A DNA stretch of 61,940 nucleotides, counting the filler, from Stramenopiles sp. TOSAG23-3 (taxonomy: Eukaryota): the NCBI GenBank assembly GCA_900128585.1. It is 18 parts of 18 records of this genome, joined end to end, with 100 filler letters (N's around TTAATTAATTAA, not from the genome) between each part and the next. Parts side by side here need not be neighbours in the genome. Positions count along the whole stretch, not along the records: positions 6,935 to 10,300 come from LT644271.1; 17 more parts are not named here. The stretch is one strand, 5' to 3'. The notes beneath the pieces were generated by a model. The model saw only the letters and a list, made by a program, of their open reading frames with translations, made no database searches and was not told where the DNA came from. A program made the position numbers and the translations under genes. This document shows, one piece after another, positions 3,368 through 59,235 of the stretch. The stretch's first letter is position 1, and the number at the start of each line of letters is the position of its first letter.

Positions 3368-3467
3368 NNNNNNNNNNNNNNNNNNNNNNNNNNNNNNNNN
3401 NNNNNNNNNNNTTAATTAATTAANNNNNNNNNNNNNNNNNNNNNNNNNNNNNNNNNNNNNNNNNNNN
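3368..3467. other. Artificial contig spacer (N44-TTAATTAATTAA-N44), first of 17
   Basis: Identical 100-bp linkers with six-frame stops start at 3368, 6835, 10301, 13764, 17227, 20689, 24145, 27592, 31039, 34485, 37929, 41366, 44801, 48235, 51663, 55090 and 58517; contig lengths never increase along the window. Confidence 0.99.
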
Positions 3468-3852
3468 GTATTATGTACCGAAGAGAATGTAATAAAATAA
3501 GAGTGGGTACAAGTAATATTTCTGGCGGGGACTCAGGCTACAGATTTCAAATTTGAAAGAACGTTCTTCGACCGCTGTCTCAAGGGTGGATCAGCGCCGT
3601 TCGGATTCTGCGGGTGTTCTCTCAAACAAAAAATTATTGTGATGTTTGAAAAATTACGCTCTTACAGTTTCAAAATCGATGTTCAGTTTGCTTTACCTCA
3701 TCCTTCATAAGGTTACTGCTTGAATTGAAACCTGCAGTTTTGTGCACTCTTCAAATTTACGACTGAATACTACTTTTGTGCTTCCTCCCAGGTACAGGAA
3801 CCCGGTTATAATTGTCCTTGTAATTACTACTCCCATCGTTGTTATTTTTGTC

Positions 3853-6834
3853 ATGCTTCGAACACTTCTCCGTCGGTCACAGCGAGAACGACATCGTGTT
3901 ATTTTGCGACAACGTAGATCGAACATTATTGATACCCGACAAGAACATTTGGATAAATTATCGGAAAGAGCTAGAGTAGAGAGTTTGGCAGCTGCAAGAA
4001 TACAAGGCGTGAAACGTTGCTGGGATGCTAAAGTAAAAGTTGCGTGGATTCGCAAAACAGAGGCAGCGGCACTGCTATTGCAGAAAACATGGCGAGGTGT
4101 TCTCGGTAGACGAGTCGCACATGAGGAAAAACTGAAATTAGTGAGAGTGGTTCCAACCAAGTTCCAAATGCAACAACTTAAGAAACGATGCATTGTCATG
4201 GGCAGGTTTGGAGATTGGCAAGAATTGCGAGACCCTCATACAAACCACATATTTTTTTACCATACTCCTACCGGTGACTCACAGTGGGACCCCCCTACTG
4301 GAGATGAATTGGGTGATGTTAATGATTACCACTGTACTTTCGAAGATTGCCTTCAAGTTTTCCCCAATCTTTTGGCTCTTGAACACCATCGTGGTACATG
4401 TCATAGATGGCGATGCCCAGCGTGTTTTCAGGAAAATATCATAAATGTTTTTCCACGATGCGAACGTTGTGGAAATGAAAAGGGGGGCAGCGGACGCCGT
4501 CTAACGACAGAGTACGAAGAAAAATGGGAAACTAAATTAATTGTCAAGGAGCGCAAACTAAGCAGCCTGGCAAAAAATGTACTCATGGTAACACGAAATT
4601 CTCTAACAGACTTACGCCCGCAGTCAGCAGTTGATAGACATTTTTTCAAAGTTCGTGAAAGTGTTTTACTCGAAATAAAACAATATACGCCACGATCGCG
4701 CAAAAAGTTTTGTTATGCAGACGATGAAAAAGAATGGCCTGACCGCCTCGCCCAAAGAGGTCCTATGTCTCAACATGCATATGAACGAAAAATTCGTAAG
4801 AAAAGAGAAAACAATCGTCGAAAACAAAATGCCAGTGATGAAGTTCTGCGAAGGTTGTCTCTTTTGGGACCCCTTCAGGCCGGTCATTCAGTTGACATTC
4901 GGTTAAGTCAGTCAAATTTAGACAAAGAAATCCGATCATGGACTAAAGGGCGGCCAATTACACCATTATTGTCATGCAAATTGACGGAAGTATCACTGCA
5001 CGAATGGTTTGAGTCGCACATTTCAAACGAAGACGCACAGCAACAAATAACCGCAACAGAGAACACGCTAGACAATGGAAATGGCTTTTCACATTTCTTT
5101 AATGGCGAGGAGAAACCGTTGGGGGACAAAACTACCCGTGAAGTGTCGGTTCTAAGAGATCGCCACGGAGAGACAAAATTGGAGGGTTTGGAATCTGGTG
5201 ATAGTAGAATTACATTCGAGGATGCTGACAAACTGAAACCTGCAGAAGATACACCGTCTCTAAAGCACAAATTTCAAAATAAAAAAAGTAAATATCAAAT
5301 CAATATTAACGTTTCAAAAAAATCTGGAGAGATGCTTCGTCCAAAATCCGTGCCTATAGGTTTAAATGCAATACGACAGCATGGCATAGAATCATACAAA
5401 CCACTGATAAGGAAAGGTCACGGTACTCGTGCCTTCGCTAGTGGTGCAAAATATACTGGAGATCTACTTGGAGGTAACATGTGTGGTTTTGGAACAATGG
5501 TGTACCAGAATGGAGACACTTATGTTGGGGAGTGGAAAAATGGTTGTAGAGAGGGTGATGGGTTGTTCCGAAGCACGGATGGTAAAATTTACGAAGGTGA
5601 ATGGAAATTAGGGTCACGGGATGGTTATGGAACACTAACACACCCAAATGGAGAAATTTATATGGGGCAGTGGAAAGATGGAAGAATGTCGGGTAATGGT
5701 ACTTTATCTTCCGCAAACGGCGATACTTATGAAGGAAGGTGGCGAAACGGCAAATATCATGGCACAGGAAAATTCACGAAGGCAAATGGCCAGATGTTTA
5801 TAGGTACTTGCATAGCTGGGAAAGCAAATGGCAAAGGTATTATCCGGTATGCTAATGGTGAAATTTATAAGGGCACGTGGAAAGATGATCAAAGAAATGG
5901 GAGAGGTATAGGTACATTTTCAAATGGCGCAAAGTATACTGGTTCATGGGAACGAGGAAAGTTCAATGGACAGGGAAAGCTGATAGTGCCCGGTGGTGAA
6001 GTTTATGTTGGTGATTGGTTTATGGGGAAGAGAGATGGTTATGGGAAAGCCGTATTCGCAAATAAAGACACCTATGTGGGGTTGTGGCATCGAGATAGAG
6101 TGTGTGGGAATGGTATAATGTATTACTGCGAATCAGGAAATTTGTACGACGGAAAATTCGACAATGGTATGAGAAATGGTCTTGGTACCTTAAAGCTTAA
6201 AGATGGTGGTTCATTTCGTGGTTTTTTTAAGAATGGTAGCATTCATGGGCGCGGGATATTCCGGTATGGCAACGGAGATATTTATAAAGGGCAATTTAAA
6301 AATGGCCGTAAAGAAGGAAAAGGGATCTTTAAGTGGTCAAATGGAAACGAGTTCAAAGGTCAGTTCCGTTTTGACAAAATTGACGGCTTGGGAAATATGA
6401 AATATGCAGTGGGCCATTCATATTCTGGAGAATGGAGAAATGGAAAAAAGCATGGCTTTGGAAAATTTCTTTTCAATGATGGCAACCTTTATGAAGGTTT
6501 CTGGAAGTCTGATCGAAGACATGGACGAGGAAAGTTTATTTGGAATCGTATGCAAAAAGGCTCTGCAGAATACTATGATGGTGAATGGGTGAATGATCGC
6601 CGTGAAGGCGCAGGTAAATATCAGTATAAGAACGGTTCTACATTTGAGGGAATGTGGGTAAATGGTATGCGAGAGGGAAAAGGAGTATTTCAATTTATGG
6701 ATGGCAGCTTTTTTGATGGCGAATTCAAAGAAAACGTCAGGGACGGTTGTGGGGTATTCCAATCAATAGACGGGATGCGGTATAATGGCGATTGGAAAAG
6801 GGGCACTATGCATGGATCTGGGGTATTGTTTAAA
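3853..6834 (+). CDS. MORN-repeat protein with N-terminal IQ, WW, C2H2 and RanBP2-type zinc-finger motifs, 3'-partial
   Basis: IQ-like LQKTWRGVLGRR; WW WQELRDPHTNHIFFYHTPTGDSQWDPP; CTFEDC...HHRGTCH; WRCPAC...CERC; about 20 YxGxWxxGxxxGxG repeats from about 5430; first ATG at 3853. Confidence 0.9.
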
Positions 6835-6934
6835 NNNNNNNNNNNNNNNNNNNNNNNNNNNNNNNNNNNNNNNNNNNNTTAATTAATTAANNNNNNNNNN
6901 NNNNNNNNNNNNNNNNNNNNNNNNNNNNNNNNNN

Positions 6935-9435
6935 TAAAGCAACAGGGCTACGAATCAAGCAATATGGTGGTGCTGACGCCGTATCTTGGACAACTATTAA
7001 AAATCAAGACAGCACTTTCGGCAAAATTCCAGAAAGTTTACGTCGGTGATCTAGATCAAGGTGAGGCAAAAAAACTTCTAAACGATGTTGAAGGTTTTGA
7101 ACTTGGTGGAGCTGCGGCACAAGACAACGCCGTGCGCGTTGCTACAATCGACAACTATCAAGGCGAAGAGTCAGATATTGTGATCATCTCACTGGTCAGG
7201 AGCAACCGTGAGCACAATATTGGCTTTGTTCAAGAGCCAGAGCGAGTAAATGTGATGTTGTCTCGTGCCAGATATTGCGAAATCATCATTGGTAATAGTG
7301 AATGTTTGACGCGGGCACGTTCCTCGCGTCGTTCCGACAGTGAGCTCAGCGGTGGTCCTCTGTGGAATAAGATTATGAATCATCTTATTGAACGAAAGTG
7401 CGTGTTTAAGGGACTACCTGTAAAGTGCCAAACACATCCAAATAAAACCAATTTGCTTGCCTCTCCGACTGAATTTGACAAGTTTTGCCCGTTGGGTGGA
7501 TGCGACAGATTATGTGGTAAACCACTGCCATGTGGTCATGTCTGCAAGCAGCAGTGTCACCCAGTCAGCGTTTGTACTGGCAACTGTACCGAAGAAGTTG
7601 ATGCACAGTGTGTAAAAAAGAATCACACACTCAAAAAACGATGTTGCGATAAAACTCCACCTAAATGCAAAGCGATTGTCAGTGTAAAGTGCCCCAATGG
7701 CCACCCCTTAAGAAAGGAGTGTTGGAAACCGAAGACTCCAAAATGCTCCAAGCGCGTCATGTGGTGTTGTGAAAAAGAGCACAATTCAATGCAAGAGTGT
7801 TATAAATTACGCGCCACGAATGTGAAACAAGCACCAAAATGTAAAACATGCAAAGAATTGGCTAATATGCAGGCTGAGTATGACCGAGTGGAGCAACGTC
7901 GTAAGCAGGAACAGGAAGAGATTGATCATGCACAGAATCTTGCACTCGCGGAAGCCAAGAAAAAACTCGAGCAAATGCAGCGCGAAAACAAAGCCGCAGA
8001 AGTCTGCTTAAAAAATAGAATCGAATTGGAAAAGAGGAAGACAGAAGTGTACAAGCTGAAGCAAGAGAAGAAAAAAAAAACACTATTAGGTAAGATTGAA
8101 TTACAACGGTCAAAAAAAGAGCAAGAATTGCGCGAAAGATTTTCAGGTGAGGAAATGGAAAAGAGTCTTTTGGAAGCGGAACAGGCTGCTGATGCGGACA
8201 TTGCAAAAATGAAGGCACTGCTTGCGAGGGGTTTGAAAAACCACAAAGAAGCAATCCAAAGAAAATTGAAGGAGATTAACACTGAGAAACGTGCGAAGCA
8301 GGAAGAATTTGCCGCTCTAAAATCCAGTGTCGAACAAGAACAACAAGAAAAGCTCCATGCTATGACTATGCAACAGGAAAAAGCAAATTCCGTAGCCGAA
8401 CAGAAAAAAATTGATCTCCAAGAGAAGCACAAGGCATATATTGCTAATCTGCGAAAAGAAGAGCAACAAGCCAAGAGAGCCAACGCAGCTGCTGAAGATG
8501 AGGCGAGTGCAGAGAGGTACCGTTCATATCAGCGTTTCATCGAAGGAGATCCTCAGGAGATGGCTAAGGCTGATCGACTTTTGGACGAACATCGTGCAAT
8601 ACGCAATGAGTTAGCAGAAATAAAAGAGAAAGAGGAGGAGTTGAAACGCGTAAAAGAACAAAATCAGCGTGAGTGCGTCGTTTGCCTGGAATACTGTGAT
8701 CTCAATAATGGTGTAGAGTGTCACTCTGAAGAGCGTCATTTTTTGTGTAGGTATTGTCTTTCAATGCATGTCGATACTTCTGTGGAGAACGAAAAGCTAC
8801 CAACATTTGAAAAAAACAATTGTAGAATTCTATGTGCAGATCGGTGTGATCAAGTTTATTCAGATCAGTCTATTGCGCAGTGTGTACCCAACGATTGTTT
8901 TTCACGTCTTCTGGAAGCAAAAACAAAGATTAAAGAGAAACTACTTGCGGAGGAGCTTGAAAAAGGTTTTGAGCAGCGCATTGAAGCGCGAGTGGCAGCT
9001 ATTGCTGCCATGTCGGACGCGGAGAAACGTTTGAGTGAGCATCGAAATCATATCATTGAGAGAATTTTGACACTGGCTTGCCCGCGTTGTTCCCGTGCAT
9101 TTGTTGGCTTTGAGGGATGTTGTGCATTGAAATGTTCGGAATGGCGGCGAAACGATCCAAATAGCTGCTGTCAGTTTTGTGCGTACTGTTTGAAAGATTG
9201 TGGTGATGATGCACACCCACATGTGTCAGCTAAACGTTGTCCTGGCAATAAAGGCTTGTTTCCAACGCCTGCCGCAGAAGTCTTTCAAGAGACGCATCGT
9301 TTGAGACGACAAAGATTGTTGAAAGAGTATCTGAGAGGCATGAAGAACGATGATGAAAGAGCTGAGTTAATTACTAGTTTGGCAAGAGAGTTAATTGATC
9401 TTCAGCTGGAACCTGAATTCTTTCTGTATGCGTGA
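6935..9435 (+). CDS. ZNFX1/UPF1-like SF1 helicase C-terminus + NF-X1-type zinc fingers + coiled coil + RING + RBR RING2-like domain, 5'-partial
   Basis: QQGY..NMVVLTPYLGQL, TIDNYQGEESDIVIISLVRSN, RVNVMLSRAR; CGKPLPCGHVCKQQCH; RING CVVC..C..H..CRYC from 8674; CPRCSRAFVGFEGCCALKC..FCAYC from 9079. Confidence 0.85.
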
Positions 9436-10400
9436 ACACCGGGGTGGAGTCAATGTCTACCACTACCGCCGACACCATAACGGAGGCAACCAGGTATGAC
9501 AGCATTGTCAATATTGCCAATTGTGCAGGAGAAGAAAACACGTGATAAACAGTAAACAATGATGAAATGTCAACCAATTATTTCATTGGTCATTGTTCAT
9601 TTATCTCTGAATTCTTCTTTGTTATAAAATTAGTACAAATTAAAAATAACAATTTTAATAATAAAGAACGGTGAATAACAGAAGAACAAGGCAAAAGACA
9701 CCCCCCCCCCCATCAGTGGGTTTATTATTAAAAAATACCAAGTAGTATATATATTATGATACGAGTATGAGACTTTTATTAGCTAATATAATGCAGAAAA
9801 GAATTGGAGAGAGGTGGAGGAGGATAACCACTCATAATAAAGCTATATGATAAACAGTATTTCTTGTTTTTAATTGTTGTTGATGAAGAATAAAAAGTTT
9901 GTTTCAGCGCAGCAGCGGCGGCGAAGAAGTAAAAAGAAAAAAATCTTGAAAAATAAATATCTTATTTTAAAATATTAAATAACACGTGCACAACAACAAG
10001 AACAAATAAAATAATAATAGAAACAACAAAAGAAGATAATAATTTTTTTTTATAGAGACTATATTTTTAGGAAGAGAAGGGAAGAAGAAGAAAAGAAGGG
10101 GGAAGAAAGATAATATGATTCGAATAGAAGAGATAGAAGATAGAAGGAAGATGTCGACTACTACGACGATGGAAAAAAAAAGAAAAAAACACACCATTAC
10201 GAGACGAGCGATACGTTTTATTAGATTTTCAACTTTCAACTTTCCAACAAACAAAAGTGATTTTATAATCATGATTGCTAAAATGTTTCATAAACTTACA
10301 NNNNNNNNNNNNNNNNNNNNNNNNNNNNNNNNNNNNNNNNNNNNTTAATTAATTAANNNNNNNNNNNNNNNNNNNNNNNNNNNNNNNNNNNNNNNNNNNN

Positions 10401-32126: not shown

Positions 32127-34484
32127 TTACACGGTGATTTTGCTCAGGTCAAAAAGCTGAAGATTGAAATTATCCACCATTTCACCGAATTCACTAAGGC
32201 TTAAATCATGCCTACCAAGAAATTGACGAATGCTCTCGTCTTCGTTTTTCAACAGCGCAGCCATACCTGCCCCAATCCGTACCAGATGCCTTTGCCGAAC
32301 CATTTTCTTGTGTTTATGCGTTGCGTTGGGGACGAGCAACGGTACATCGTACTTGAGCGCGCACCCTGCACCATAATGGTAAAGCACATTATTTTCGTCG
32401 TCCTGGAGTTCCTCTGGGTTTTGCATATCTTTGCGTTCGGTGGCTAGGAAAAGGACGTCTAGATTGTCATAATACGCCACCGGGAAATGCCACTTAACCT
32501 CGTTCACTTTTTCTGGGTCGCCAGAGGCTATTTCAGGTTCTTTTTTGCCCTCTGTAGCTGCCTTTTCTTCTTCTGTTGATTGGGCTTCTTTGTTTTCAGG
32601 CTCGGGCTTCTTGTCACCTTGTTCTTCTTCATCATCGGCGTCGTCTTCTTGGTCAGTGACTGGTTTTGTCCCGAGAAGCTCGTGGTCCTTGCCGTCAAAG
32701 GATTTCCATTCGCTTTCCAGTAATTCAACAGCATCCGTCCAAAATTCTTCATCAGCTCCGATAACACCACCCAGCTTTTGCTCGGCTTTCAGATTCATTT
32801 TGAAGAAAGGTATTACACCAGATCCTTCAGCTAAAGCTGTACCGTGTGCTGAATTTGTGTCCAAAATTACCTCTTGCTCTGAAAGCCCACATGCGCGCTC
32901 TAATCCTCCAATTGTAAACGTGTGCTTACGTTTTGCTCTCCTTACCCCGACTCCAATTTCCTGAAGAAAGTCGCTATAATTGTGAATAAAGTAATCGCAG
33001 CAGTGCGAAACTTGTTCGTGGTTCAATATTCTTCCGGTAGTTATCAGAGAATACGCTACTTTCTTCATTTTTTCAGAAGCAGTTTTAAGGCCGGGAAGTT
33101 CACCGATGGTACCACTGTTTGTCCAGTCCGTCAGCTTTTTGCTGAACGATAACTTCAACTCTTTTATGTGTTTTATTCGAGTCGTCTGAATGGTTTTTGC
33201 AAATTGTCGATACTGAAATTCATTTTCATGGCGGAGCAAGAGTGCGTGTCGATATTGCACCTCATCTTCAAACCTGATACCTGTGCGGACATTGACGACA
33301 TCAATCGAGTTTTTTGGAAGCACGGAGAGACCCAAAAGCACGCAGGCATACGCAGTAGGAAAAAAATTGTCCCCGTTCGACTTTTCTGAGTCAATCTTGC
33401 TGCCCGCCCCCCCTAGTGTAGCGTTTGTCGAATTCCGCACGTTTCTCAAATTCTCCGAAAATTTCATCTTCCTCTCTATCGTGGTTTCCAAGGTTTCCTT
33501 CACGCCAGCATTATTCCCACGGCCAGGTAAAGGGCTCTTGGCGGCCTCAATTATAAACTTTGTAGAGGGGTTGCCCGCAAAAATTACTTCTTTTAACCAA
33601 CTGTTTGCGCTGCTCATCGCAACTAAATTTCGTAAGCCGTCTACCCGTATTTGACACTGGGATACATCCAAGGACTCTAATCCCCATCCCCCACCGTGAC
33701 AACGATTGTGGGGATGAGCTAGGCATTTTGCAATGATTTTGGCACCACGATCGCCAAGAGCCGTTCCCCGCAGGCTTAGATGCCTCATGGTGCTGCGACC
33801 AGCAACACTATGGATTAACGCGATTAGGCCATCCATCCTACCGAAACCTTTTGTAACCAGTAAATCCGCGACATCGTTGCCGTCCAAAATCAACTCTTCT
33901 AATCGGCATACTCGGCCACGTGGCTGAACCTCTACAACAGCCCCCAAGCCGACGTACGAGCCAACCAGACTGCGGATGCGACATCGAGGTACACTCAGTT
34001 CAATGTATTCACCCGAATCAATAGGCTGGGTAAACGTTTTTGCAGCTGGAATTTTGTTCACTACTTGGTGGTTTTCTGCAAACATTTTTACATCATAGGA
34101 CTCTGTTGCACGGAAAACTCTTGCAAGAGGGGCAAATACAACTGCTCGTTTGTACCCTTTTCGGAAAATTTGGTAGTCAAACGTTGTAGATTTGTCGTAT
34201 TCGTTGCTGAAATTGTTCAATGGTTTGTTCCGCAAAAATTTAAAAGGGACCATTTCGAAGTATTCCTCGTTCTCGCTGTCTTCAACTTCGAACGTAATAG
34301 TGCCAGCTTGGTGATTCGTTGTAATGCCATTGCTTGTGTCTTTTACGTTCCCCAGCTTTTTGCCTGTTCGTATATGCCAATAAAACTCTTCCCCCGTAAC
34401 GTCTTTCTTAATAACTACCTCGCCCATGCGATAGGTTTTTTGGGTTATATACTGCACTTGCGCTTTTTCGTACCCCTTGCGATT
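32127..34484 (-). CDS. RI-like leucine-rich-repeat protein, 5'-partial
   Basis: LEELILDGNDV, MRHLSLRGTALGDRGA, LESLDVSQCQIRVDG, LKEVIFAGN; frame open to the contig edge. Confidence 0.8.
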   Translation of the reverse strand, partial: NRKGYEKAQVQYITQKTYRMGEVVIKKDVTGEEFYWHIRTGKKLGNVKDTSNGITTNHQAGTITFEVEDSENEEYFEMVPFKFLRNKPLNNFSNEYDKSTTFDYQIFRKGYKRAVVFAPLARVFRATESYDVKMFAENHQVVNKIPAAKTFTQPIDSGEYIELSVPRCRIRSLVGSYVGLGAVVEVQPRGRVCRLEELILDGNDVADLLVTKGFGRMDGLIALIHSVAGRSTMRHLSLRGTALGDRGAKIIAKCLAHPHNRCHGGGWGLESLDVSQCQIRVDGLRNLVAMSSANSWLKEVIFAGNPSTKFIIEAAKSPLPGRGNNAGVKETLETTIERKMKFSENLRNVRNSTNATLGGAGSKIDSEKSNGDNFFPTAYACVLLGLSVLPKNSIDVVNVRTGIRFEDEVQYRHALLLRHENEFQYRQFAKTIQTTRIKHIKELKLSFSKKLTDWTNSGTIGELPGLKTASEKMKKVAYSLITTGRILNHEQVSHCCDYFIHNYSDFLQEIGVGVRRAKRKHTFTIGGLERACGLSEQEVILDTNSAHGTALAEGSGVIPFFKMNLKAEQKLGGVIGADEEFWTDAVELLESEWKSFDGKDHELLGTKPVTDQEDDADDEEEQGDKKPEPENKEAQSTEEEKAATEGKKEPEIASGDPEKVNEVKWHFPVAYYDNLDVLFLATERKDMQNPEELQDDENNVLYHYGAGCALKYDVPLLVPNATHKHKKMVRQRHLVRIGAGMAALLKNEDESIRQFLGRHDLSLSEFGEMVDNFNLQLFDLSKITV

Positions 34485-41465: not shown

Positions 41466-43080
41466 GCACACGAATGATCGGTTTGTTGTTTTGATCAACC
41501 ACACAGCGAAACTGAGCCAGGTCTTCCTCGCTTATCTGAGCGGCCATTGTACCAAGCGTGCTTTTGAGTACATTACGAAGAGGGTCAAGCTTTGAATTCA
41601 ATGCCACTAAGTGCCTCAAGTGGTTTTCGCTCGTTTGCTTGTAGCGCCACTTAGACATATTCATGTACGCCCGAGCATATCGACTTGCCACAAGGGCATC
41701 AGTGGTGTGTTTTTGGTGCTCTCGAATTTGCCCTTGTTCGTGTTCCGCTTTCTGTTCGAGGACTTTGACATTTGACCGCAACGAATTAATCATGATTAGT
41801 TTCTGTTTACCTTCGTCAACAGCAAGCCCATTAGCCCTAGCTCTTACTAAGCCTCGTAGGTTGTGCTTCTCTTCGCTCTCGCAATTTTTTCCGACTGACT
41901 TTGACATTAGAAAAGCCTGGACAACGTCATCGTGCTTGTTAATTTCAAGCTTCAAATTATAGTGCCCGTAAGCGCGCGCTTGTACAACTTTACTGTAGGC
42001 AGAGTTTGTTTCCGTGCACAATGCCTGTTTTGCTCGAAAATTACCACTGCGGTTCCATCTTCTTTGCGATTTCGGTCTTGTCGGGGCTGTTATAGGTCGT
42101 GCATCGGCATGAAGCAAATTTGTCAAGTTCGAATGGCCTTGTCGAACTCTGTAACTTGTTGTTGGCCTGTGCTGATCTATTGCATCTTTGAGGGCCCTCT
42201 GCAAAACGACAGTGTCGTATTCTACTTGTTTCTGTGCCATTGCTGAATTAAACGCGGTCATGTAATTTGAATGGGAATGGTATCTAAAGTGCTTGTGGGC
42301 TCGACCTGCATGTGGCTTTTCTACTAGTCTTTTCTCGACCAAAGTGACATTATTGGTTTTGCTCTGTGGCCTAGTTGATGGGTACTCGTTTGGATTACGA
42401 GCACTGAGGGGGCGGTGGTACTGAAACACGCCATGCTCATTTTGTGGAATTGCTAATTTAAAATTTTGGCGGGATTTTAGTGACAGAGGGATTTTGTCTT
42501 GGTGTTTAGACCGACCCTCTTTCGACCGAAACGATCTAGGGGATAGGAAGAACATCTCTTCCGTTTCTATTGGTCTCATGAACACCGCTGGGGTAAGATT
42601 TCTAGGGGTCGCGTTGAACAATTTGTGAGACGTTGTCGATGATGGGGGCGGGCGCCACGGTTCCTTCGATTTTGTAATGCGCTTCCGGGTATTGTTAGGC
42701 GCGGTCATAGGGCGTCTAGAGGAGCGCTTGGTGCTAAATTCCATAAATATTTTTTGTTTCCGTCGTTTTTCATCTGTTTTTGTATCGGTAATGGTCTGAA
42801 GTAACGTTCGCATGTCATTGGCTAGCTGGTTGTCACGCTTTTCAGACTCCAATTTTTGAACTTTAAATTCTTTCCTTAGTTTAGTTGCCATGGCCTGTCT
42901 GACCACATTCCTCTTCTTCTCTTGTTCAACATTTAAATCTTGAAGGGGTTCCTCCATTGGCATAGCATTTTCGGAGCTCACGTCGTTGTCTGGTTTGTCT
43001 TGTTGGGGTTCTGGAGTTTCCCCATTCGTCTTGTTGCCTCCTTGATTCTTCTTCTTTTCACTTTTTCCCAATTTCGCCAT
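41466..43080 (-). CDS. Hypothetical basic coiled-coil protein with RPx(T/S) motifs, 3'-partial
   Basis: Long ORF; RPMTAP, RPLSA, RPQS, RPTTS, RPITAP, RPKS; first ATG at 43080. Confidence 0.7.
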
Positions 43081-43710
43081 GACAGCCAACAGGAAGGTTA
43101 GTATCCAATGGATTGCGATTGGTTCCTTCACCAACTCGTGTACAAAATCGCAAATTTTAAATAGTTCCCCTTAGATTTTTTTTATACTTTAAAACCTACT
43201 GCAATAATTAATGCTCGCTCGAATGACATTTTGATGACTATTGTTACTTTTTTGTTAAAAGAAGATGATGATATGATAGACGCGACGAGACGACGAGACT
43301 CTTCTGTGCTCTAAAATATATTAGACGACTATATGAAAAATATGCGTTTCAACGATGAAGTCATAATATTATATTTATATAATAAATGTAACCCACAATT
43401 ATTCTCAACACACAACATGCTATTTGATGTATATATAATATGTTGCTTTTTCATTTTTCCATTTTAAGACTATGGTGAAAGAGTGGTGAAAGAGTGGTGA
43501 AAGAGAGCGAGTGTAATGCCGAATCTCTATATAATGTGTTTACTTAAACGTAATAAAGTATGAGGAGCTAACGTCTCAATATTTGGTACCCTATCTATAT
43601 TGACTGTAAATTTTAAATTAAATTCTGCTTGACTTTATCTTTAAGGTAATCAAAACATTGAATTATAAGTGAGGATATATATGGTTTTTCATCAGAGATG
43701 AAAAGCCAAG

Positions 43711-56799: not shown

Positions 56800-58179
56800 T
56801 CACAATTTCTTCTTCTTCAGCTCAATGGTTGGAGAAGTTGGCGCCTGGACAACTTTGAAGTGCACAACGCAAAGTTCTGATTTATCATTCAAGTCTTTGT
56901 AAAATTTCTTCAAAACCGTCTTCAGAGCAGCGGCGCTCTCCAAATTTTCCAAACGCGCTAACTTGTCGTCTATGTTTTTGTACAAACGTTTTTCCACCGC
57001 CGTGACCTTGATGACGGCGAACGTGCTGCCACTTTGGTCCGTCGCCGATACCTGCATGCCAGGAACAAAGTCGCCGACCCGTTCGATACTTCCCCCCTTT
57101 TTCTGAAATTTATCGACGCGGGTAGTCGCAGTCTTTTCCCCAGATCGAATTATATCCACGAACTCATCGGAAAAGTTCAGCTCACGCCGCTTTGAAGATT
57201 TGTTTGCAGTCTTCAACCAAAAGTAGAAGGCAACACCAGCGGTAGTCAGGACAACCCCAAAAAGTTGAGCCGCCCAAGACGTCGATTTTTGCGCTTGGGG
57301 GAACAAAGCCCACCCAAGGGCGGTGGACGCGATGAACTTGGCGTTGCCCAAAATTTGGTACGTTGTCGAGGATGTGCGGGCCACAACGGTCGGGGATATA
57401 ATATTCACACCAAACGCCAGCACGCATGTAACTCCTATGGAAAAAAACAAGCTCAAGTCCCCGGTACGCAAACGCTCTTGCACGGGGCTCTCCCCTTGGG
57501 TTTCTATCAAGAGGACGAACAGCAGGCAGAAGAGCCCCCTGTACAGCAACGTTGCCTGTTGTACTTGCATTGTACTCGCACTGTACCACCTCGAAATTTC
57601 CCCGAACAGTATCTGGTCAAAGACGTTAAAGAATGTCGAACAGAAGCCAACCAGGAGCCCCCCGTGCGAGACATACTCTGCGACGGCCACGTCGTCACCG
57701 GCGTTTTCGGAAGCCCAAATATTGTCAAAGTGTTCGGAAAATATCACGCAAAGCGTACCCCCGCAAATTGTTGCCAACGAGAAGCACATTCTCCATGAGA
57801 GTGAGTGAATGTTCAGTAAGGAGTAGACGCACGCAGAGACCGGGATACCGAGCAGCTTGAAAGATTGGTACACAGCGACCGAGTTCAGGTGCAACGACCA
57901 GTTGCACGATAAGATCGCCAAGCCACTGGAAGCTGCATACAACAAGGCAGCCCAGAGGGGTATGCGCTTCCGAACAAACACTCCGCCAGACTGCATTGAC
58001 GTAACGAACACCGCATTGACAAGAAAATGACACGACGTTAAGAACAATGGGAACTTGAAGTTTTTCGTGTTCAGCACCACTTTGTTTGCGATTACTATGC
58101 CCACAGAAACCAACAAAGACGCAACCATGTAAAGGACAGTAGTAACATTCAGCAACTCCGAACGCCCCCGCGGCGACAT
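56800..58179 (-). CDS. Nucleotide-sugar transporter (TPT/SLC35E-like) fused to a C-terminal YqfB-like ASCH domain
   Basis: SVGIVIANK, FPLFLTSCHF, NWSLHLNSVAVYQSFKL, RTSSTTYQILGNAK and many TM helices, then in frame FSDEFVDIIRSGEKTATTR..ARLEN..LKKFY..VVHFK. Confidence 0.85.
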   Translation of the reverse strand: MSPRGRSELLNVTTVLYMVASLLVSVGIVIANKVVLNTKNFKFPLFLTSCHFLVNAVFVTSMQSGGVFVRKRIPLWAALLYAASSGLAILSCNWSLHLNSVAVYQSFKLLGIPVSACVYSLLNIHSLSWRMCFSLATICGGTLCVIFSEHFDNIWASENAGDDVAVAEYVSHGGLLVGFCSTFFNVFDQILFGEISRWYSASTMQVQQATLLYRGLFCLLFVLLIETQGESPVQERLRTGDLSLFFSIGVTCVLAFGVNIISPTVVARTSSTTYQILGNAKFIASTALGWALFPQAQKSTSWAAQLFGVVLTTAGVAFYFWLKTANKSSKRRELNFSDEFVDIIRSGEKTATTRVDKFQKKGGSIERVGDFVPGMQVSATDQSGSTFAVIKVTAVEKRLYKNIDDKLARLENLESAAALKTVLKKFYKDLNDKSELCVVHFKVVQAPTSPTIELKKKKL

Positions 58180-59235
58180 GGTTCCAATAAAGAAAGGGTC
58201 GCAACGACTACCACAACTATACGAAAGGATCAAAACGATTTAAAAAAAGGAAAGAACCGTGTACACGTTTACACATGAAGTTAATTTGTTCCTACATCCC
58301 GGTCGTAAAATGCAATTTCTTTTCTCTTTTTTATTTTACAACTCAAACATTCATACTCTCTCTCTCTGTATTTTAATCTGGGGAAATGTTTGTTTTTTCC
58401 CGTTCCTTTTAAAAATTGAATTTGGCCACCATCATCACCACCACCAGCCTACTTTTTCCCGGCGCGCTGGTGGGACGGTTTCCCGACAGCAAATCGCTCA
58501 AATCTTCCGCAAAAATNNNNNNNNNNNNNNNNNNNNNNNNNNNNNNNNNNNNNNNNNNNNTTAATTAATTAANNNNNNNNNNNNNNNNNNNNNNNNNNNN
58601 NNNNNNNNNNNNNNNNGGTGGGTGGGTAGGTGGGTGGGTACGTGGATCACGTCCTCCGCTCTTGGTGTTGTCAGAGAAGGGGAAACGGGAGAACGGTCTG
58701 GTCTTAATTGTATGGACAATGTTTTCTGTTTCAGTTCTAATATTTATTGGAATTGTGTGTGGATTTAAAACAAACCGTTGATTCAAATTCTTCTTCTTTT
58801 TTTGGTTTAAAAAAAAAAGAAAAAATTATTCTTTTTTTTTTTTTAATTTAAAAAATCCATTCGTTATTTAAGGAATTAAGTTTAAAGTACAATCTATTAT
58901 TTGAAACGTTCCTACAAATTGCATTCAATTACAAAAGTTAAAAATATTAATTGTAAAACTTACCTAAACTAGAGAATGTCCGGGTTCGCCTCTTTTCAAT
59001 CTCAAAAAACAACAAAGAAGAAGCAAGAAACGAAAGGGAACAAACATAAGGGAAAGAAGGTTCAAAAAAGGAAACGTGACAAATCCTTTGAACTTCCCTT
59101 TTTCAATATTTTGGATAAATGCCACACATTGATCTACATTTTACAAATAACAAATTACGAAAACCGTTGAATCGTCTTTCTTCTTCAACGGCTTTACTCT
59201 CTCTCTCTCTCTCTCTCTCTTCCAACCCGTTCCCC

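Follow-up and report, generated by a model that had tools for sequence, protein, structure and literature searches.

The RZ finger is a transthiolating domain common to ZNFX1 and RNF213. In RBR ubiquitin ligases, the IBR is a defining part that helps hold ubiquitin, and the catalytic triad sets a His (and a Glu) beside the catalytic Cys. Two 2025 preprints on human ZNFX1, an antiviral protein, joined RNA sensing to an unusual two-part ligase made of non-RBR domains: an E2-binding RING-like domain (a one-zinc Miz/Z-RING) is coupled to the transthiolating RZ finger (a beta-sandwich) in an arrangement “resembling RBR E3 ligases,” RNA binding regulates the E3, and the protein with a mutated catalytic Cys keeps a RING-like direct activity (10.1101/2025.10.14.682297; 10.1101/2025.09.05.674436). 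A helicase and an RBR-type ligase also share one protein in the plant/eukaryote “Helicase” RBR subfamily—though there a DEAD/DEAH (SF2) helicase carries a complete RING1-IBR-RING2, whereas the protein considered here pairs an SF1 helicase of ZNFX1 type with a module that has no IBR (PMC2904391). The literature searched, subscription journals excepted, yielded no account of an RBR lacking the IBR, nor any of the present fusion.

The window analyzed here (the whole stretch of 61,940 nucleotides from Stramenopiles sp. TOSAG23-3) consists of 18 contigs chained via N44-TTAATTAATTAA-N44 spacers. On one of these (6935–10300, 3.4 kb), the plus strand between 6937 and 9435 is open for 832 codons up to its stop, with no frameshift across 2.5 kb; the window being made up of chained contigs, the frame is cut on its 5′ side by the contig end. 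It is the rear two-fifths of a ZNFX1-like RNA helicase gene, the 3′ part of a gene without introns from an uncultured marine protist, and holds 832 of an expected 1,700–2,100 codons. Encoded in turn are the C-terminal end of an SF1 helicase, a stalk of NFX1-type zinc fingers, a charged helical spacer of 276 residues, and a C-terminal cassette of 260 residues (Table 1). A first-pass annotation of this DNA had described such a fusion; its observations are confirmed (the coiled coil only in part), down to the exact placement of the RING from Cys580 (8674) and of the CPRC motif from Cys715 (9079), while its interpretation as a helicase–ligase that might act as an antiviral sensor and effector is supported in part only. 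Elsewhere in the window, no second cassette was found by profile search of all six frames, and no ubiquitin or E2 gene among 24 large ORFs.

Table 1. Features of the helicase–cassette frame, in positions of the window and residues of the frame.
Feature	Position	Strand	Basis
SF1 helicase core, C-terminal part (RecA2 lobe), residues 1–121	6937..7299	+	Pfam AAA_12; contig end at 6935 cuts the 5′ side
Cys/His-rich NFX1-type zinc-finger stalk, residues about 146–305	7372..7851	+	alignment to ZNFX1 9q9z_A
Charged helical spacer, residues 303–578 (coiled coil or single charged helix)	7843..8670	+	composition, weak heptad signal
RING1-type C3HC4 finger: C580, C583, C595, H601, C604, C607, C633, C637	8674..8847	+	
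Two-helix hairpin, residues 652–690 and 694–711, where RBRs have helix-IBR-helix	8890..9069	+	
RING2/Rcat-like zinc domain: C715, C718, C733, C744/745, C748, C751, C755, H760, H762, C768	9079..9240	+	
Codon of Cys728, candidate catalytic (thioester) cysteine	9118..9120	+	conservation, parkin alignment
Helical tail at the C-terminus of the cassette, residues 780–832	9274..9432	+	model helices
Stop codon	9433..9435	+	frame read
A+T-rich 3′ flank to contig end	9436..10300	+	sequence read; contigs of four runs on 9421–9646

The helicase end had been read as the C-terminal part of an SF1 enzyme, and Pfam AAA_12 bears this out on residues 3–121 (profile positions 105–194 of 195, E 2.9e-24); it was the sole Pfam match of the whole fragment and three sub-pieces, with no RING, IBR, Rcat, or zf-NF-X1 model even at E 10. 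Among PDB sequences, the helicase part aligned to several SF1 helicases, ZNFX1 and UPF1 among them, the best match being human ZNFX1 (9q9z_A 1265–1428 on residues 65–240, E 2.2e-21; UPF1, 1.3e-14). This frame holds only the last 121 residues of the core, without the N-terminal lobe, and a collinear full-length relative (P0122) extends the comparison at E 4.4e-79 to human ZNFX1 versus 1.5e-30 to UPF1/NAM7. By sequence, then, the SF1 core is closest to ZNFX1, as had been proposed, and a housekeeping helicase of the UPF1/SEN1 type was dropped as a candidate on these scores. As in human ZNFX1 (9q9z), the NFX1-type stalk adjoins the core directly, and helicase and predicted ligase lie in one polypeptide. 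Specifically, the alignment to 9q9z_A reaches its residue 1428 via the first stalk fingers, in agreement with the NF-X1 fingers noted before, and the stalk shares 37–45% identity with those of six relatives (P0164, P0094, P0122, P0165, P0170, and P0210).

Behind the stalk, E, K, A, Q, L, and R make up 72% of residues 303–578, which include a single Pro. The earlier description as a “long coiled coil” is borne out only in part; the heptads are clear only in residues 415–470, the overall signal being weak (matched by 5.9% of 2,000 shuffles), and the spacer may be a single charged helix instead. P0164, P0094, and L001 have spacers collinear with it.

By sequence profile and predicted fold, the C-terminal cassette is a shortened RBR-derived module of the parkin/RNF216 type, with RING1 and a RING2/Rcat-like domain and no IBR, much as the first-pass annotation had it. 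The window’s own copy gives little by itself: searched alone, it matched no RING, IBR, or Rcat model of Pfam even at E 10 and no RBR among PDB sequences (the sole match being a de-novo design, E 0.81), and a first profile of 19 cassette sequences matched nothing significant in the PDB and no RBR. A profile of 58 relatives, however, retrieved parkin (5caw_A, E 3.7e-6) through two distinct matches, one on RING1 (i-E 2.9e-4) and one on RING2 (i-E 0.032), as well as the isolated Rcat domains of parkin and HHARI (E 0.012–0.018), and Pfam IBR_1 was matched by 17 of the 58 (best E 2.6e-5). Fold comparison points the same way. With the AlphaFold model of the cassette (pLDDT 93.9, pTM 0.74), all 38 of the Foldseek matches listed down to rank 44 were RBR ligases, although neither model used gave a Foldseek match at E 1e-3 or better, and a language-model search placed RBR, IBR, and Rcat_RNF216 clusters at 0.90–0.92. 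An RZ finger at the C-terminus was considered and dropped: none was found after the stalk, where the spacer and the RBR-like cassette fill the remainder with no further Pfam family at E 1.

The two-part logic of human ZNFX1, an E2-binding RING-like domain followed by a separate Cys-bearing domain, recurs here as judged from sequence and model, but apparently with other domains: behind the charged helix stand a C3HC4 RING1 with two zinc sites and a RING2 of Rcat-like type, rather than the Miz/Z-RING (absent from the solved 9q9z chain) and the RZ finger. The RING reported earlier keeps all eight of its ligands, each conserved in 109–138 of the 125–141 relatives that cover it, and its model superposes on RNF216 512–601 (Z 10.5, rmsd 2.4 Å over 89 residues) and on RING1 of parkin (Z 8.6). 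This RING1 fold, as well as the helix before RING2, is shared with RNF216 (TRIAD3), parkin, HHARI, HOIL-1, and HOIP. The position after the last ligand (the linchpin) holds no conserved basic residue (A in 23, D in 21, and K in 15 of 141 relatives), as expected of a non-allosteric RING1. Unlike in RBR ligases, the IBR is absent, and a 3-residue turn between two helices (helices 83–121 and 125–142 of the model) stands in its place. The linker between RING1 and RING2 comprises 77 residues, helical in the model, and the absence of an IBR, already remarked upon, extends across the family: the stretch from C637 to C715 spans 67–87 residues in 142 relatives and holds 0–1 Cys in 128 of them, an IBR (PF01485) being present only in a distant relative (P0019) between RING1 and a RING2 of the cassette’s type. 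The second helix of the hairpin is strongly conserved (R703 in 98/149, H705 in 106/148, E708 in 108/148, L711 in 136/149, and, just beyond, L713 in 139/149). In RBRs, the helix before RING2 binds donor ubiquitin (PMC9834252).

RING2 bears the residue on which catalysis would turn. Cys728 is kept in 149 of the 150 best relatives and aligns with the Cys of parkin’s GCMHMIC; the CxxC-x9-C-x4-C spacing around it equals that of parkin and HHARI, and the domain aligns without gaps to the Rcat sequences of both. Two residues on, where parkin and HHARI have His, 145 of the 150 best relatives have Ala (A730), so that the usual RBR active-site His is absent, a substitution also picked up in the first-pass annotation. 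The second half of RING2 carries an invariant DCG-x-DAH-x-HV-x3-C that, with the fusion to a helicase or kinase, sets the cassette apart from RBR ligases; the invariant H760 and H762 within it may substitute for the missing His. Extra Cys and His in this half are also a feature of RNF216 and HOIL-1 (PMC9834252). The RING2 half of the cassette holds Cys and His in excess of what two zinc sites would take up, which leaves room in principle for Cys728 to bind metal. Matches of RING2 as a single domain are weak (i-E 0.01–0.03, Z 5.5–5.9, Foldseek E ≥ 0.2): the first 11 Foldseek matches listed were all Rcat chains of RBRs, at E 0.2–1.8, and the superposition of helix and RING2 on RNF216 reached Z 5.7–5.9. 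In a structure search independent of Foldseek, the C-terminal half alone placed RNF216 third and fourth (Z 5.7 and 5.5), tied on Z with unrelated helical matches but aligned over 100–106 residues versus about 60. The helical tail of the cassette (model helices 211–231, 236–245, 247–252, and 257–260; pLDDT >90) falls within the match to RNF216 652–771.

Taken together, we consider it probable that the gene encodes a ZNFX1-type SF1 helicase with an IBR-less, RBR-derived, two-step ligase cassette whose activity or location RNA probably controls. In this model, the rigid NFX1-type stalk and the long charged helix would hold out the C-terminal cassette, a charged E2 would dock on RING1, and the donor ubiquitin would be held by the conserved helix preceding RING2. 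Ubiquitin would then pass to Cys728 as a thioester and from there to substrate, with His760/His762 perhaps serving for the missing active-site His. RNA binding by the helicase would, by analogy with human ZNFX1, control or localize the ligase, and such a protein may have an antiviral role.

That the frame is instead a chimera of assembly, or a piece of a dead gene in a single-cell assembly, is in our judgment highly improbable. The contig is short and truncated at its 5′ side, no independent contigs were found on 7504–7905 or 9647–10098 (an absence that proves nothing), and the window’s cassette is sister to a kinase-borne copy, being 61% identical to this nearest relative versus 33–36% to helicase-borne copies. 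Against these points stand the open, unshifted frame and seven collinear relatives: six proteins aligned in a single HSP over residues 2–805 or further (P0094, P0122, P0165, P0170, P0210, and P0152), and L001, an uninterrupted 2,079-codon ORF collinear over the whole fragment (E 1e-123). Likewise, P0002 spans both spacer (62% identity) and cassette (72%), and the spacer to residue 586 lies nearer to helicase-borne P0164 (E 2e-12) than to kinase-borne P0020 (8e-5). An independent metagenome contig from another study (X3 record 4) bridges spacer and RING1 at 8588–8977 with 0 mismatches, and with it and the seven relatives the chimera across the coiled coil that had been named as a refuting condition does not apply and was dropped. 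The reading as chimera or dead fragment is largely refuted. No near-identical locus was found in the metagenome scan, where the best loci were 33–56% identical; pieces of the locus were found in RNA libraries, which is no proof of transcription.

Granted the fusion, the cassette could be a plain one-step RING ligase. RING1 would then activate E2~Ub for direct transfer, Cys728 would have a structural role, and the RING2-like domain and tail would do no more than bind substrate, a partner, or ubiquitin chains. We regard this reading as unlikely even though support is best for RING1 (Z 10.5), Ala stands where the active-site His would be, and the fold match of RING2 is weak. The activity kept by the human ZNFX1 Cys mutant would be in keeping with it (10.1101/2025.10.14.682297; 10.1101/2025.09.05.674436). 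It leaves aside the near-invariance of Cys728 at exactly the catalytic position and spacing of parkin, a linchpin position with no conserved basic residue, and the equivalent of the donor-ubiquitin helix (PMC9834252) among the most conserved stretches. Less likely still is that the cassette is no ligase at all, and serves as a zinc-finger and helix docking tail for oligomerization, localization, or the binding of nucleic acid or poly(ADP-ribose). The lack of a curated family model for the window’s copy would suit such a tail, as would very different carriers (of the best 150 of the family, 41 are kinases and 14 SF1 helicases, with one PBZ protein), but sequence profile and fold alike indicate RBR ligases and nothing else, and ubiquitin-like domains (P0053, L001) and a U-box (P0082) on other cassette proteins fit ubiquitin chemistry.

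Beyond the two-step ligase proposed for this one gene, we tentatively raise the possibility that RING1-helix-helix-RING2 constitutes a new IBR-less, two-step transthiolating class, a plug-in effector on marine protist kinases and helicases that swaps with PARP, AAA+, and Miz+RZ tails on the ZNFX1 chassis. Fungal and protist ZNFX1-like helicases do share the helicase–stalk chassis and carry other tails: a PARP replaces the cassette in P0164 (1518–1719), P0171, and P0258—the first of these being the closest helicase relative, 41% identical over residues 2–586 including the spacer—and an AAA+ ATPase does so in P0166 and many fungal (Hrr1-like) proteins. The first-pass idea that helicase and E3 were assembled here independently of the animal Miz/Z-RING and RZ module finds support, because the cassette recurs on kinases and the window’s sister copy is kinase-borne. 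If the proposal is true, unrelated parts gave rise at least twice to the RBR-like logic seen in human ZNFX1, and ZNFX1-type proteins would be an ancient modular immune platform of “RNA sensor plus swappable effector.” One chassis with RBR-derived, PARP, or AAA+ tails offers a natural experiment on what ZNFX1-type proteins require of a tail. An RBR-type ligase may, moreover, work without an IBR, which bears on the accepted RBR mechanism, where ubiquitin is held with the help of the IBR region.

The cassette family itself is large, undescribed, and also found on protein kinases. Its 1,936 representative clusters expose a marine protist family of kinase- and helicase-linked predicted ligase tails whose relatives’ Pfam matches are weak and of the IBR type only. 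A word-indexed search for cassette proteins longer than 1,457 aa returned none, a false negative of the index since such proteins exist, and the 11 matches to a single cassette pattern on viral contigs included no relative. The cassette was also seen, in one case (P0138), on an SF2 helicase.

The 61,940-base window is not a single chromosome stretch: N44-TTAATTAATTAA-N44 spacers (window 3368–3467, 6835–6934, 10301–10400 and 14 further places) link 18 pieces, each about 3.4 kb long. It is thus a chain of separate contigs, and gene neighbors are uninformative on linkage. Of the sampled words of the piece at 6935–10300, 98–99% occur in two very small DNA runs flagged as its possible source, so this is genomic DNA, from an uncultured marine eukaryote. 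It has one long open frame, whose residue numbering we use throughout (see table). Since this frame starts at the contig end, within the helicase domain, its 5′ truncation reflects assembly rather than biology; 3′ of the stop, 865 A+T-rich bases run to the contig end. At window 9009, contigs of three unrelated sequencing runs (X4, X5, and X6) have A instead of C; this third-position change leaves Ala691 as it is and is therefore a silent population variant.

Features of the window, with conservation of RING ligands and neighboring positions (kept/counted)
Feature	Window (strand)	Residues	Detail
Open frame	6937 to stop at 9433–9435 (+)		832 codons
End of Pfam AAA_12		3–121	E 2.9e-24
Charged spacer		303–578	72% E/K/A/Q/L/R, one proline
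RING1 ligand	8674	C580	123/125
RING1 ligand		C583	109/126
RING1 ligand		C595	126/128
RING1 ligand		H601	124/129
RING1 ligand		C604	124/131
RING1 ligand		C607	125/132
RING1 ligand		C633	138/138
RING1 ligand		C637	118/141
RING2	9079	C715	149/149
RING2		P716	149/149
RING2		C718	148/149
RING2		C728	149/150
RING2		A730	145/150
RING2		C733	150/150
RING2		C748	149/150
RING2		C751	150/150
RING2		C755	136/150
RING2		H760	149/150
RING2		H762	148/150
RING2		C768	150/150
ORF, separate contig	3724–6834 (+)		WW domain, then long MORN-repeat array (Pfam MORN E 1e-85); cut by contig end
ORF, separate contig	10401–13763 (−)		1,121 residues; weak kinase-domain match, EF-hand pair; no cassette
Three large ORFs	24330–26528, 32130–34484, 41467–43170		568–785 codons; no Pfam match at 1e-5
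Large ORF	56803–58239 (−)		Sole domain ASCH, at its end

On its alignments the helicase is ZNFX1-type, because both the fragment (the translated frame) and P0122, a relative with a complete core that is collinear with the whole fragment, match ZNFX1 better than UPF1. Human ZNFX1 (9q9z_A) is the fragment's top solved relative (E 2.2e-21), in an alignment extending beyond the helicase through the post-core segment and first NFX1-type fingers to residue 240, whereas the UPF1 match (E 1.3e-14) ends at residue 159; P0122 scores 4.4e-79 against ZNFX1 vs. 1.5e-30 against UPF1/NAM7. These values bear out the ZNFX1-like helicase of the first-pass annotation and argue against a UPF1/SEN1-type grouping. 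The NF-X1-type fingers proposed there also stand, through the ZNFX1 alignment, though the Pfam zinc-finger model found no match in the stalk. The fragment thus resembles human ZNFX1 in core and stalk, but lacks the RZ finger. The spacer that follows has weak heptad periodicity overall (5.9% of 2,000 shuffles equal it), clear only around residues 415–470. From its composition we call it a long charged helix, either coiled coil or single helix; the long coiled coil first proposed is therefore supported locally but not along its length.

The fusion of this chassis (helicase, stalk, and spacer) to the C-terminal RING1–two helices–RING2 module, hereafter the cassette (residues about 570–832), is real. 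A chimeric assembly across the spacer is ruled out by collinear relatives, by two closer matches and by an uninterrupted metagenomic ORF. P0094, P0122, P0152, P0165, P0170, and P0210 each align in one segment from residue 1–3 to 805–825, and among 78 metagenome loci L001, L004, L011, L017, L021, and L027 match from residue 2–3 to 800–831. On a 13.7-kb metagenome contig, L001 (568–6807, +) is an open frame of 2,079 codons, 34% identical to residues 2–828 (E 1e-123), with a ubiquitin-like domain (203–270), AAA_11/AAA_12 (821–1381) and the cassette. The relative P0002 covers the spacer end and cassette (62% and 72% identity), and X3 record 4, from an unrelated metagenome run, bridges spacer and RING1 at 8588–8977 without mismatch. 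L001's ubiquitin-like domain lies a long way N-terminal to its helicase and is reminiscent of the Ubl in parkin and HOIL-1; P0053, which joins the cassette to a kinase, has a ubiquitin-family domain as well. RNA-library pieces at 7906–8059, 8277–8622, 8962–9172, and 9454–9631 give a bare hint of expression.

Conservation within the cassette was counted over the 150 best REPRESENTATIVES (best 150 of 1,936), with denominators varying by position (see table). The first-pass starts of both rings are exact, at C580 and C715, and the RING reading of the former is upheld by its kept ligands and its superposition on RNF216 (Z 10.5). After the last RING1 ligand there is no conserved base; among 141 sequences the next residue is A in 23, D in 21 and K in 15. 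The cassette has no IBR: as first described, a helical linker separates C637 from C715. In 142 sequences this linker measures 67–87 residues (median 77), and 128 of them have 0–1 Cys in it; in the AlphaFold model it forms two helices with a three-residue turn between. Conservation is strong in the second helix (L711 136/149, L713 139/149, E708 108/148). Within RING2, family G-C-f-A-L-k-C aligns gap-free on parkin G-C-M-H-M-I-C, so C728 occupies the catalytic-Cys position and Ala that of the His, in agreement with the initial reading. Cys and His in the latter half of RING2 outnumber what a single zinc site requires, as is also described for RNF216 and HOIL-1 (PMC9834252). In several predicted relatives (P0007–P0014, alignment columns about 550–700), Cys/Phe/Leu-rich text directly follows the conserved RRERMLRE, as though the gene caller had read through an unspliced intron; the window's gene is uninterrupted there.

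When 1.84 billion representatives were searched exhaustively with HMMER, 1,936 cassette proteins passed E 1e-3, 1,076 of them E 1e-10 and 41 E 1e-30. In almost every one the match spans all 250 residues and sits at the C terminus; those relatives that have a name are called “uncharacterized” or “hypothetical.” Single-sequence searches with the window's cassette alone found nothing in Pfam or PDB, and Pfam IBR-type models did not match this copy; among 58 relatives, IBR_1 matched 17, IBR_2 6, and IBR 2. A profile of these 58 matched louse parkin in PDB (E 3.7e-6; RING1 stretch i-E 2.9e-4, RING2 stretch i-E 0.032) and isolated parkin and HHARI catalytic domains (E 0.012–0.018). In a language-model search the nearest clusters were unnamed and haptophyte, followed by RBR/IBR/Rcat_RNF216 clusters at 0.90–0.92. 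The AlphaFold model built on the 58-relative alignment (pLDDT 93.9, pTM 0.74) gave no whole-cassette Foldseek match at E 1e-3 or better, and all 38 of 38 rows listed through rank 44 were RBR ligases. Model residues 8–105 superpose on RNF216 512–601 (rmsd 2.4 Å, 89 residues) and on parkin RING1 (Z 8.6), and model 122–257 on RNF216 helix–RING2 652–771 (Z 5.9, rmsd 3.7 Å, 99 residues). For the RING2 half folded separately (pLDDT 94.1), the first 11 listed Foldseek rows were RNF216, parkin, and HHARI Rcat chains (E 0.2–1.8); a Foldseek-independent search placed RNF216 third and fourth (Z 5.7, 5.5), tied with unrelated helical matches but aligned over 100–106 of 145 residues vs. about 60. Homology to RBR RING1 is secure; for RING2, the combined sequence evidence supports homology well, fold statistics only weakly. 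The cassette is RBR-derived. A distant relative, P0019, keeps RING1, a Pfam IBR, and the same RING2 type, which suggests IBR loss in the cassette lineage. With neither IBR nor His beside the Cys, the cassette falls outside the RBR definition despite its descent.

RBR ligases bind the E2 through RING1 and the donor ubiquitin through the pre-RING2 helix, and ubiquitin is handed on via the RING2 cysteine (PMC9834252). By homology the cassette may use the same relay, with transfer through Cys728 and with His760 or His762 as candidate replacements for the missing base. Its chief competitor is a RING ligase that works in one step and whose RING2 is non-catalytic; A730 at the His position speaks for this, C728, kept in 149/150, against it. 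Under the relay reading, the helicase could confer RNA-dependent control or localization. Human ZNFX1 itself joins an E2-binding one-zinc RING-like domain (Miz/Z-RING) to a transthiolating RZ finger (10.1101/2025.10.14.682297; 10.1101/2025.09.05.674436). One of these preprints describes the arrangement with the words “resembles RBR E3 ligases,” and according to the other the E3 is regulated by RNA binding. Part of what makes the protein interesting is a putatively convergent design, “helicase plus two-step ligase.” The helicase–E3 fusion first proposed is confirmed as an observation and, through its ZNFX1-type helicase and RBR-derived tail, partly supported as an interpretation. The “Helicase” RBR subfamily (PMC2904391) differs in pairing a DEAD/DEAH helicase with a complete RBR; in the open-access literature our searches turned up no account of an SF1 ZNFX1-type helicase that ends in an IBR-less RBR tail, nor of the cassette on kinases.

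Also of interest are the swappable tails and the large, unannotated ligase-like family. Among the best 150 of 1,936 (Pfam thresholds 1e-5, 0.01, and 1e-6 in different batches), the cassette's partner was a protein kinase in 41, an AAA_12 SF1 helicase in 14, ankyrin in two, and a DEAD helicase, MORN, U-box, or PBZ in one each; 89, mostly short fragments, had none. A quick maximum-likelihood tree was built from 64 cassettes, 18 of them on helicases, 41 on kinases and 5 on other proteins (P0138, with only 157 matched residues, left out). In it the window's cassette is sister to that of kinase-borne P0020 (SH-aLRT 99), and the helicase/kinase label requires 8–9 changes, well-supported branches alone forcing at least 2–3. 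By these sequence comparisons the cassette has moved between proteins as one block, with its N-terminal boundary as the point of exchange, because it is closer to P0020's than to those of the collinear helicases (61% identity vs. 33–36%) but the spacer, through residue 586, better matches helicase-borne P0164. This protein (1,720 aa), the closest relative of the helicase–stalk–spacer part (41% over residues 2–586), carries a PARP catalytic domain (1518–1719) exactly at the cassette's place; P0171 and P0258 also have PARP, and P0166 and many fungal proteins have AAA+ modules. The chassis tail looks swappable. The PARP-tailed relatives, together with cassettes joined to a PBZ poly(ADP-ribose)-binding finger (P0119, 749 aa) or a U-box (P0082, 580 aa), hint at a link between ADP-ribosylation and this ligase family.
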